From: a virus
Lineage: Duplodnaviria; Heunggongvirae; Uroviricota; Caudoviricetes
Strand: one strand, 5' to 3'
IMG/VR virus record: IMGVR_UViG_2802429224_000006
Coordinates: 1-20,498 of that record
Length of the DNA: 20,498 nt
The position numbers are program-made. Within the stretch, counting starts at the first letter, position 1; every line of letters starts with the position of its first letter. Below, in pieces: positions 1 to 3,000 of this stretch.

Positions 1-3000
1 CGACCAGCGACCAGCGACCAGCGACCAGCGACCAGCGACCAGCGACCAGCGACCAGCGACCAGCGACCAGCGACCAGCGACCAGCGACCAGCGACCAGCG
101 ACCAGCGACCAGCGACCAGTAAATCCAGAAAGACGGTAAAATCGGTTGAGCCGCAAATTTCCGATCTCGCGAACTCATGGCTTAAATCTTACGGGCTTGA
201 TTACAGGCTGGAGCAGGCACCACTTAACCGCGAGATAGATAACGCCCTGGACGCCTATTTTTCGAAAAATGGCGGTGCAGGTGGTAACCGTCCCGATGTA
301 AAACTCCTTATTCAGGACAAATACGGCAGGCAGTACCCCGTTCTCATCGAATACAAAGGCTATAAGGACAGGCTTATCCGGCTTGGCAGTAACGGTATCA
401 TCGAGAATAAAGATTCCAGAAAAGAATGGAACTTTAAAAACATTAATGGATATGCGGTTAATGGTGCAGTCCATTATGCCAACGCACTTCTCCAGTTTAC
501 CAACTACTCAGATATTATTGCGATCGGTATGACAGGCTGGTGCGATGATGATACAGGAGAGCTTCATCATGAAATTGGCGTGTGGTATGTATCAAAGAAT
601 AATTTTGGGGCTGGGCAGAAGGTTGGTGAATACACTGACTTATCGTTCCTTGCGGATAAAAATGTTGACGGATTTATCAACAAGATAAAGCTGCTTAATC
701 TGCCGCCTGAGGAGCTGGAAAAAATTAAGGCCAGCAAAGAGGAAGAGATAGACACTCGACTTTCTCGCCTGAACAACGATATTTATCAGGATGAAAAGGG
801 GCTTGGTGAAAGTGATCGTGTTTACCTTGTTGTGGCTACCGTGATTGCGACGTTGGGTATTCCTGACAAACTGGCACCCCTGGATAAAAAAGAACTTACT
901 TCATCAACGGAAGACGATTGGCGTGATGGCGATATTATTTTCAGGAAAATAAGAAACTTTTTACGACTAAAAGCTCTTCCTGAAACAAAAAGAGAAATGA
1001 TTTTGCGCACGCTGCAAAATACGCTGTTGACTGAAAACATTAACAAACCAGTCAATGGTGAAAGCCAGTTAAAGCGCGTGTTTGTTAAGGTTGTCGATGA
1101 CCTTGGGGAATACTACAAAATCGGGTTGACCACCGACTTTACGGGTAAGCTGTTTAATGAGATGTATCGCTGGCTTGGGTTTACGCAGGACAAGCTTAAT
1201 GATGTCGTCCTGACTCCACCCTACGTAGCCACATTACTGGCAAAACTTGCGCGGGTGAATAAAGATTCCTATGTATGGGATTTTGCTACCGGTTCAGCCG
1301 GATTGCTTGTGGCTGCAATGAACGAAATGCTCATTGACGCCAGAGAGAATATTCACTCACCCAACGAACTGCAACTCAAGGAGGCGAAAATCAAGGCAGA
1401 GCAGCTTCTTGGTATTGAGGTGTTACCCAGTATTTACATGCTAGCAATTCTGAACATGATCCTGATGGGGGATGGGAGCTCAAATATCCTCAATAAAGAC
1501 TCGCTGGCCGATTTTGACGGCAGATATGGCTTTGGGAGAACAGGGGAAAAATTCCCGGCCGACGCATTTATTCTCAATCCTCCGTATTCTGCTAAAGGCA
1601 ACGGCATGGTTTTCGTGCAGAAAGCTCTTTCGATGATGGATAAAGGCTATGCCGCAGTGATTATCCAGAGTTCAGCCGGGACAGGAAAAGCGACGGAGTA
1701 CAACAAAAAAATACTCAAAGAAAATACCTTACTGGCAAGCATCAAAATGCCTGCGGATCTATTTATTGGTAAATCAAGCGTTCAGACCTACATTTACGTT
1801 TTTCAGGTGAAAATTAAGCATAGCGCGAAACAGGCGGTTAAGTTCATCGATTTTTCCAATGATGGCTACATTCGCTCTAATCGCAAAAAGGCAAGAAGTA
1901 ACCTTGTTAACGCCGATCGTGCAAAAGAACGCTACCAGGAAGTGGTGGATCTGGTTCATTTCGGGGGAGGTTGCCTCAATATCCTTACGGAAGATGAATA
2001 TTTTGAAGGAACCATCGATCCTGATAGCGGTGAGGACTGGAATCAGACGAAGCCTGTGGATACCAGGCCAACACTGGATGATTTCAAAAAAACGGTGAGT
2101 GACTACCTTGCGTGGGAGGTGTCGCAATTACTGAAAAAACAAGGTGAAAACAATTCTGCGGGAAAGTAAACTCCCCGCTCAGCGATAAATTAAAAAGTGT
2201 TGAGTGGGGAGAATTCAGGATTGGCGATTTGTTCGATGTGAGCACTGGTTCGCTTATTTCCTCAGGGAGATTAAAACCTGGCAAAATTAAACGCGTTTCA
2301 GCAAAGAGCGAACAAAATGGCATCATCGGAGAATTTGATACGGAGTTTATGGATGATGCAAGGCATTATGAAAATTTCATAAGCGTTAATTTCTTTGGAG
2401 ATGCTTTTTATCATCCTTATTGTGCCAGCGTCGAAATGAAGGTACATGTTCTTACATTAAAATCAAATAAGTCTGGCTTTAACACAAAGTGCGGATTATA
2501 TATTACCAGTATGATTAATAAAACTTTAAAAGGACGCTTTAATTATGGTCAACAGTTATCTAGTTCCAAACTTAGGGATGGAGAATATTTCATAAAATTA
2601 CCGGTAAAAAATAATGCAATTGACTGGGATTTTATGGATAATTATATAGAAGAGCTGGAAGCGATCCATATAGAAGAGCTGGAAGCGTATTTAATGGTTA
2701 GCGGACTCGCGGACTCGCGGACTCGCGGACTCGCGGACTCGCGGACTCGCGGACTCGCGGACTCGCGGACTCGCGGACTGATAAGCTATGAGCTTACGCC
2801 GCAGGAATCAAATATTTTAGATAAAATTAAAAATGGCGGCGTTTCATGGGAAATGCTGCCATTTGATTATTTTTTTAGCCGCATAAAGCAAGGGAAACGG
2901 TTGAAAAAACAAGATCATATTAAAGGTGATATTCCTTTTGTTATGGCAGGTATAACGAATAATGGCGTTGCAAACTTTATATCAAATCCTCATGTGATTT

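Follow-up and report, generated by a model that had tools for sequence, protein, structure and literature searches.

The described systems closest to the locus analyzed here are BcgI and BsaXI, both two-part restriction-modification systems. BcgI has the composition A2B1, in which the RM subunit "A" carries restriction (R) and modification (M) with one catalytic site and the specificity subunit (S) is "B", in a ratio of 2RM:1S (PMC3874165). BsaXI assembles as (RM)2S, its RM protein follows the order R, helical connector, M that is shared with BcgI-type enzymes, and mutagenesis showed its N-terminal residues E73/D90/E105/K107 to be essential for cleavage (PMC11997821). The present study concerns a window of 20,498 nucleotides, the whole of positions 1 to 20,498 of the IMG/VR virus record IMGVR_UViG_2802429224_000006 (Caudoviricetes), which opens with an RM gene followed by an S reading frame; all features described for it are on the plus strand. 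We consider it probable, taking the parts of the explanation jointly, that bases 1-3368 hold a restriction-modification system of the BcgI/BsaXI kind in which a frameshift joins S to RM and in which repeats switch expression. As predicted, it would be a two-gene, ATP-independent system of Type IIB (multimeric Type IIG). It resembles BcgI in the RM-then-S order, in an N-terminal nuclease joined to a gamma-class N6-adenine methyltransferase, in an HsdS-like S with two target recognition domains (TRDs), and in having no ATPase subunit. It differs in that the S of BcgI is separately translated, whereas S in the window is start-less behind a putative -1 frameshift cassette, and in that no repeats have been reported for BcgI.

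Nuclease and methyltransferase domains of RM

The RM gene (1-2169) encodes a fusion of nuclease and methyltransferase. Frame 1 is open from base 1 to the TAA at 2167-2169, giving 723 codons with the stop, and continues past the 5′ edge of the window, in agreement with the preliminary description of this DNA, which had counted at least 723. The 5′ end of the open reading frame (ORF) lies beyond that edge, inside a (CGACCAG)17 tract, and residues are numbered here along the 683 amino acids after the repeat (encoded by 118-2166). The same description had proposed a PD-(D/E)xK nuclease motif ahead of the methylase domain. Its two elements, RPD (CGT CCC GAT, 289-297) and IEYK (ATC GAA TAC AAA, 346-357), lie exactly where it placed them in the frame-1 translation, which contains GGAGGNRPDVKLLIQDKYGRQYPVLIEYKGYKD. 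The string by itself is at chance level: PD-x(8-30)-[DE]xK occurs in 32% of shuffled versions of the 683-aa RM protein and within any 200-aa stretch in 9%, a second and meaningless PD...ExK match is found at residue 635, and the bare string was therefore dropped as evidence.

The domain around the motif holds up by conservation, profile and structure. It spans residues ~10-190 (145-690), and across 23 relatives aligned at 29-64% identity E11 (148-150), D60 (295-297), E78 (349-351) and K80 (355-357) are invariant, together with S49, K50, G53, G55, A113, N115, G116, A117, Y120, G137 and L178. Because the four putative catalytic residues are conserved down to 29% identity, the domain stands above chance. 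Pfam VRR_NUC matches residues 31-87 (E 3.5e-4 with the whole protein, 6.9e-5 with the isolated domain) and is matched individually by 11 of 23 diverse family members, among which Pfam gave no other nuclease family. An AlphaFold2 model of the domain (pLDDT 94.2, pTM 0.90) has helices at 11-24, 38-46 and 113-127 and strands at 29-31, 61-66, 72-79 and 132-142, the alpha-beta-beta-beta-alpha-beta topology of such nucleases, with D60 and E78/K80 on neighbouring strands. An exhaustive search with residues 1-235 returned 496 cluster representatives; among the 150 matches listed the domain is always at or near the protein N-terminus, and full-length matches (~650-1100 aa) align on through the methyltransferase domain.

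Several results weigh against a nuclease. The VRR_NUC score of the window protein, 21.1-23.3 bits, is just below the Pfam gathering cut-off of 23.8. Foldseek found nothing significant in the PDB for the isolated domain (best E 0.03; BsaXI at rank 29, E 0.42), and neither phmmer nor a profile search of PDB sequences gave a solved relative of it: phmmer with the whole RM protein produced a spurious match only, and a profile built from 24 relatives matched methyltransferase cores, leaving the N-terminal domain unmatched. Sequence and model together nevertheless support the prediction that the N-terminal domain is a PD-(D/E)xK nuclease domain.

A multi-helical connector follows (residues ~183-335, 664-1122; helices at 183-334 in the model) and then a gamma-class N6-adenine methyltransferase domain (1135-1917; Pfam N6_Mtase, E 5.5e-21) with motif I DFATGSAG at 1279-1302 and motif IV NPPY at 1576-1587. 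The profile of this domain matches the M proteins of StySJI and EcoKI as well as RM.BsaXI, and one might thus read the locus as an ordinary Type I HsdM/HsdS pair, with the N-terminal domain a non-catalytic appendage and restriction, if any, supplied by an HsdR encoded elsewhere. Such a pair would accord with the HsdS-like character of S and with PGAP, which names relatives "HsdM family class I SAM-dependent methyltransferase". The whole protein argues otherwise. The NCBIfam hsdM profile (TIGR00497) reaches 36.9 bits where the cut-off is 242.75. Pfam finds no HsdM_N domain in RM, so the outcome of an ordinary HsdM N-terminus without a nuclease, looked for by profile search, was not seen, and the only non-methylase Pfam match was VRR_NUC. 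The REBASE-derived PADLOC profile REase_MTase_IIG (PDLC03616) covers residues 7-675 at 773 bits and E 7.5e-233, and a second Type IIG profile (637 positions) matches at E 7.5e-47. Nor does an hsdR gene adjoin the pair: none is present in the window, which begins inside the RM gene, and relatives in five unrelated contexts (E. coli prophages, phage PhiR12_3, Neisseria, Phascolarctobacterium and Providencia) lack one within 6-9 kb. With the nuclease fold and its invariant E/D/ExK set added to this, we regard the Type I explanation as very improbable, and the preliminary view of a nuclease-methylase fusion distinct from a plain HsdM is sustained.

The full-length AlphaFold2 model of RM (pLDDT 84.3) has as its top Foldseek match the BsaXI-DNA complex, aligned over 655-671 columns at E 1e-14. 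For DrdV and BpuSI the alignments exceed 700 columns, and those of HsdM proteins reach only ~490-560. Known from cryo-EM structures (8w0p, 8w2p, 8w2q), BsaXI is thus the best full-length structural match and shares the R-connector-M order and the E/D/ExK set. The differences are considerable: identity is only 15-16%, with the sequence match confined to the methyltransferase core, the BsaXI RM protein has 916 aa, and its "knob" and "paddle" are absent from the window RM, which has instead an EcoKI-like single C-terminal helix (residues 653-675, 2074-2142, a helix in the AlphaFold2 model). By analogy with EcoKI-like RM+S Type IIB models, from which the contact role of this helix is taken (PMC11997821), it would be expected to contact the coiled coil of S. 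Other systems considered, MADS (mad2), BREX PglX and Type ISP, were set aside, the match being to the methyltransferase core alone.

Calling the RM and S pair BcgI-like is supported by sequence and model as a statement about architecture. The nuclease-methylase family is itself already catalogued by annotation, and RAST labels the PhiR12_3 homologue "BcgI alpha chain-like". The reading given here corrects routine annotation, in which PGAP uses the HsdM-family name and divides S into pseudogenes, and predicts from sequence that such prophages encode a complete, self-contained restriction system.

Expression of the specificity subunit

The RM gene ends GCG GGA AAG TAA, so that a candidate slippery heptamer, G_GGA_AAG (2160-2166), directly abuts the RM stop (2167-2169). 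An SD-like (Shine-Dalgarno-like) word, AAGGTG, lies 13 nt upstream of the slippery site (2141-2146), and a 14-bp RNA hairpin (2171-2211; 2171-2184 paired with 2198-2211) begins 4 nt after the heptamer, with a folding energy of -24 kcal/mol and a z-score of -6.97; none of 200 shuffled sequences was equally stable. Relative to RM, S lies in frame -1 and runs for 402 codons from the heptamer (2160-3368). It was called S, with two TRDs, in the preliminary description, and this is borne out by two stretches of Pfam Methylase_S and by the PADLOC "Type II specificity subunit" (Specificity_II) profiles, which match at E 5.5e-26 and 6.9e-22. That it is a separate protein, as was also proposed, probably does not hold: the open stretch of the S frame begins at 2146, and no canonical start (ATG, GTG or TTG) occurs in it until a TTG at 2229, beyond the conserved VEWGEFRIGD, so that in the window no start of its own precedes the conserved N-terminus of S.

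The same arrangement recurs widely. Comparison covered 80 loci, one genome per species, and other loci besides, 84 being non-duplicate, and in 71 of these 84, from many phyla, the RM ORF ends in GGGAAAR and a stop. The heptamer is GGGAAAA in 46 and GGGAAAG in 25; the stop is TAG in 48, TAA in 18 and TGA in five. GGA is always preceded by a codon with G in third position, one of seven codons for six amino acids (CTG, TTG, TCG, GCG, GAG, CCG, CAG). In all 71 loci the S frame is -1, and a Trp is codon 15 after GGG in 70. An SD-like word occurs 5-22 nt upstream of the heptamer in 59, as GGAGG or GAGGA in 30, and a hairpin of 12-14 bp begins 4-5 nt after it. Covariation of this hairpin was examined in 70 loci, where 96% of its cells are paired, compared with 34-48% when the 3′ arm is slid, and where four pairs show compensatory changes. 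At column pair 21/43 the combinations are UA in 29, CG in 18, UG in 17 and GC in three, which couples a Leu wobble position, where changes are synonymous, to position 1 of a codon for E, K or Q. RNAalifold recovers the same junction helix.

Alternatively, S may be translated independently, through coupling or re-initiation that uses a non-canonical or downstream start, and heptamer and hairpin may serve coupling, mRNA stability or a coding constraint in place of frameshifting. The S subunits of BcgI and BsaXI are separate proteins, and some canonical start precedes Trp15 in 35 of the 71 loci, in 18 as an upstream start in the open S frame and in 17 between heptamer and Trp15, because of which independent initiation is possible in some loci. 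Neisseria has an ATG six codons before Trp15, and a few family members, L045 among them, lack the heptamer and begin S at a conventional, overlapping ATG. The arms of the hairpin encode conserved SPLN and EWGE, so that its conservation could be partly at the protein level, and the SD-like word of the window is weaker than the GGAGG or GAGGA of relatives. All of these points count against frameshifting. On the other side, 36 of 71 loci lack any ATG, GTG or TTG before the conserved Trp15, and two loci, L034 and L044, have a stop in the S frame directly ahead of GGG, with their first starts 131 and 96 codons further on. Where candidate starts exist their positions are not conserved, whereas GGGAAAR is kept at the nucleotide level, including the synonymous wobble G, the S frame is always exactly -1, and the spacing is fixed. 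Hairpin covariation couples synonymous with non-synonymous sites, and a Bacteroidales locus (L082, 6022-6090) has an unrelated S N-terminal peptide, retains GGGAAAA-TAG, and forms a different 8-bp helix (CGCCAGTC...GACTGGCG) at the same distance from the heptamer. We therefore judge translation of S on its own to be unlikely, if deserving of some weight. The junction is a probable dnaX-like -1 frameshift cassette, to go by these sequence comparisons, that would yield an RM-S fusion alongside RM, and S is probably not simply a separate subunit.

Two candidate start codons for S were considered and rejected. An ATG often follows the RM stop (TAG ATG), but it belongs to the frame of RM instead of that of S, and the window does not have it; a GTG 17 codons upstream in the S frame, sometimes chosen by gene callers, is made by the conserved AWE codons of RM, and the frame from this GTG is open in a minority of loci only. 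Transcriptional slippage was rejected on an A-run of only 3-4 nt, and an intrinsic terminator on the lack of a U-run after the hairpin. Codon-position entropy from heptamer to Trp15 (0.98, 0.49, 0.92) was uninformative for coding in the S frame, because RNA structure constrains the same bases.

The cassette shares with dnaX-type -1 frameshifting a heptamer of the X_XXY_YYZ form whose end is A_AAG or A_AAA, a hairpin 4-6 nt further downstream, an SD-like element ~10 nt upstream in most relatives, and a function in which it would set the ratio of two products per mRNA. The differences are that its slippery site lies directly against the 0-frame stop and that the two products it would join are restriction-enzyme subunits of distinct function. 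G_GGA_AAG is also the slippery site of lambda G/GT. One study describes this heptamer as highly shift-prone in E. coli (PMC5009743).

Under the frameshift mechanism, ribosomes finishing RM would reach the heptamer, stop and hairpin, and a fraction would slip -1 into S, producing an RM-S fusion (~1083 aa after the repeat) in addition to plain RM. One RM and one RM-S would then combine to the (RM)2S composition of BcgI and BsaXI, and by analogy with those enzymes the complex may methylate both halves of a bipartite site and cut unmethylated DNA on both sides of it. An engineered M-S fusion of EcoKI was active provided that free M was added (PMC3510504), and in-frame RM-TRD fusions occur naturally among relatives (P0185, P0165, P0178, P0186, P0201 and others). 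The predicted product, R-M-TRD1-TRD2, has the layout of the single-chain enzymes AloI and CjeI. Single-chain Type IIB and IIG enzymes (AloI, CjeI, CspCI, HaeIV) are fixed fusions, whereas the fusion proposed here would be partial and made at translation; free RM would therefore be co-produced, avoiding the deficit of 1RM:2TRD that a review calls "a mystery". On balance we lean toward the broader proposal that a widespread BcgI-like family makes S only as a trans-frame RM-S product through the G_GGA_AAR-stop-hairpin, fixing the (RM)2S ratio, and that prophage versions add repeats that turn the system on or off and toggle its specificity.

If the cassette is real, it offers a simple translational answer to the 2RM:1S stoichiometry, it explains S genes that appear start-less or broken in annotation, and it provides a natural intermediate form linking the Type IIB enzymes of two subunits, such as BcgI, to those of a single chain, such as AloI and CjeI. 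It would also be the first programmed frameshift described in restriction-modification. Full-text literature searches of an incomplete library found no report of frameshifting in such systems, and the first 300,000 characters of a 2016 recoding review contain no restriction-modification example.

Contingency repeats

The window begins inside a (CGACCAG)n heptanucleotide tract at the 5′ end of the RM ORF, with at least 17 copies at 1-119 (17.0 copies, 100% match by Tandem Repeats Finder, TRF). Since the unit length, 7, shares no factor with 3, each reading frame of the tract is free of stops and spells (DQRPATS)n, and the tract therefore does not reveal the ON or OFF state of the window itself; the RM start codon is outside the window, which is a point against the switch as far as this locus is concerned. 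Relatives supply what precedes the tract, AAAGGATGATTTT-ATG CTG CCA GAC CAG, and their full-unit copy numbers are 2, 8, 9, 15, 18, 33, 66, 82 and 88. Four loci have the ATG in frame with the RM ORF, and the rest are spread over both other frames, so that ON and OFF states are both represented; one locus (L097) has a degenerate proto-repeat only. This polymorphism, with an ATG directly 5′ of the tract and copy numbers from 2 to 88 in all three frames, supports at the sequence level the joint switching of R and M by the 5′ tract, as had been suggested in the preliminary description. Tract length would change by slipped-strand mispairing, and because S depends on translation of RM under the frameshift mechanism, R, M and S would be turned on and off together.

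The longest tracts are about 600 bp. By TRF they hold 89 and 83 copies, at 8498-9120 of L001 and 8540-9120 of L002 (a complete E. coli chromosome and phage PhiR12_3). Tracts of 82-88 copies far exceed usual contingency repeats and in frame would add ~200 aa of (DQRPATS)n before the nuclease. Opposite the tract, PGAP annotates a "hypothetical" or "YXWGXW repeat-containing" protein (minus strand, 8471-9130 of L001, and in other E. coli), and in E. coli genomes it divides S into pseudogene pieces; both look artefactual, given the repeat and the missing S start codon.

A second tract, of the octanucleotide GCGGACTC, occupies 2701-2779 in S between the TRDs (9.9 copies by TRF, 100% match). It follows the duplicated IEELEA motif (2646-2687, from translation) of the central conserved region between TRD1 and TRD2 and precedes TRD2. 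In the window it is in frame, and three-frame translation shows that both alternative frames stop 0-3 codons past it. Relatives have 26, 7 or 6 copies or lack the tract. Since the other frames terminate at once, changes in its length would give an S with TRD1 only, and the tract would thus toggle S between a two-TRD form and a TRD1-only form; the latter would dimerise with itself, giving recognition of a symmetric site. The truncated product, R-M-TRD1, would share the layout of HaeIV, and in NgoAV a repeat in hsdS is known to give a truncated and still functional S (PMC6789123). At the IEELEA site itself L001 and L002 have a 24-nt tandem repeat (11649-11700); repeats at the central position of HsdS are linked in NgoAV to changed spacer length (PMC6789123).

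Sequence comparison thus indicates that enterobacterial prophage versions carry two contingency repeats. Non-triplet repeats within an ORF and ON/OFF polymorphism are shared with restriction-modification systems that are phase-variable through simple sequence repeats (SSRs), namely Type III mod, Type I hsdM and hsdS, and the Campylobacter Type IIG gene cj0031. Unlike these, the present locus combines heptamer and octamer units, up to 82-88 copies, two independent tracts, and a host in lambdoid prophages of the E. coli group. No paper describing the (CGACCAG)n sequence was found in our incomplete library; the literature searched contained nothing on heptanucleotide repeats in E. coli restriction-modification genes, and surveys of Type I genes did not include this SSR. 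If the explanation is true the locus is a rare SSR contingency locus in E. coli, and a double repeat switch would let lysogens vary whether they restrict and which sequence they restrict, with a bearing on phage-host dynamics and on methylome-based strain typing of pathogenic E. coli.

A further explanation could be that the nuclease is present, but that the system serves mainly or only as a phase-variable methyltransferase in the lysogen, a phasevarion-type switch in which restriction is lost or irrelevant. Two contingency repeats with frequent OFF states would fit this, as would phase-variable Type IIG enzymes of Campylobacter, which are known to reshape methylation and expression (PMC4889913). 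NgoAVIII, the sole named BcgI-like system of Neisseria, had no methylated motif in 25 strains and no methylation or restriction role was found for it (PMC6789123), a result that may also weigh against an active restriction system here. Against a methylation-only role, the putative catalytic residues are invariant family-wide, prophage versions included, and on this conservation the nuclease may be argued to be under selection; the position of the pair as a prophage moron fits defence. We regard a role mainly or only as a phase-variable methyltransferase as quite improbable and retain the restriction system of the BcgI/BsaXI kind.

Genomic context and distribution

Upstream of the RM-S pair, E. 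coli prophages and phage PhiR12_3 have the Q antiterminator and hok, and a Providencia prophage has an antiterminator; the two genes form an island with housekeeping genes on either side in Neisseria flavescens and Phascolarctobacterium faecium. In the window S is followed by genes for tRNA-Thr and tRNA-Gly, holins, endolysin, terminase, portal, protease and major head protein. This placement suggests that the pair is a moron of a lambdoid prophage, 5′ of tRNA, lysis and packaging genes. RM proteins ~70% identical (L008-L087) occur in Bacteroidota, Bacillota, Proteobacteria, Campylobacterota, Spirochaetes, Saccharibacteria and Gracilibacteria, and such identity across phyla points to very wide, recent horizontal spread or to unusual constraint.

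Directly 3′ of the pair are tRNA-Thr(UGU) at 3722-3797 and tRNA-Gly(UCC) at 3801-3875. The latter decodes GGA, the P-site codon of the slippery heptamer, a match that may be coincidence because the tRNAs of the E. coli relative are for Ile, Arg and Arg. An ORF of 267 aa (6472-7275) that separates the lysis cassette from the small terminase has a signal-peptide-like N-terminus; it matched nothing in PHROG and may represent a second moron. Farther downstream, a 138-nt tandem repeat (12804-13312; 3.7 copies, 78% match) lies within the head maturation protease/scaffold gene at 11821-13437.

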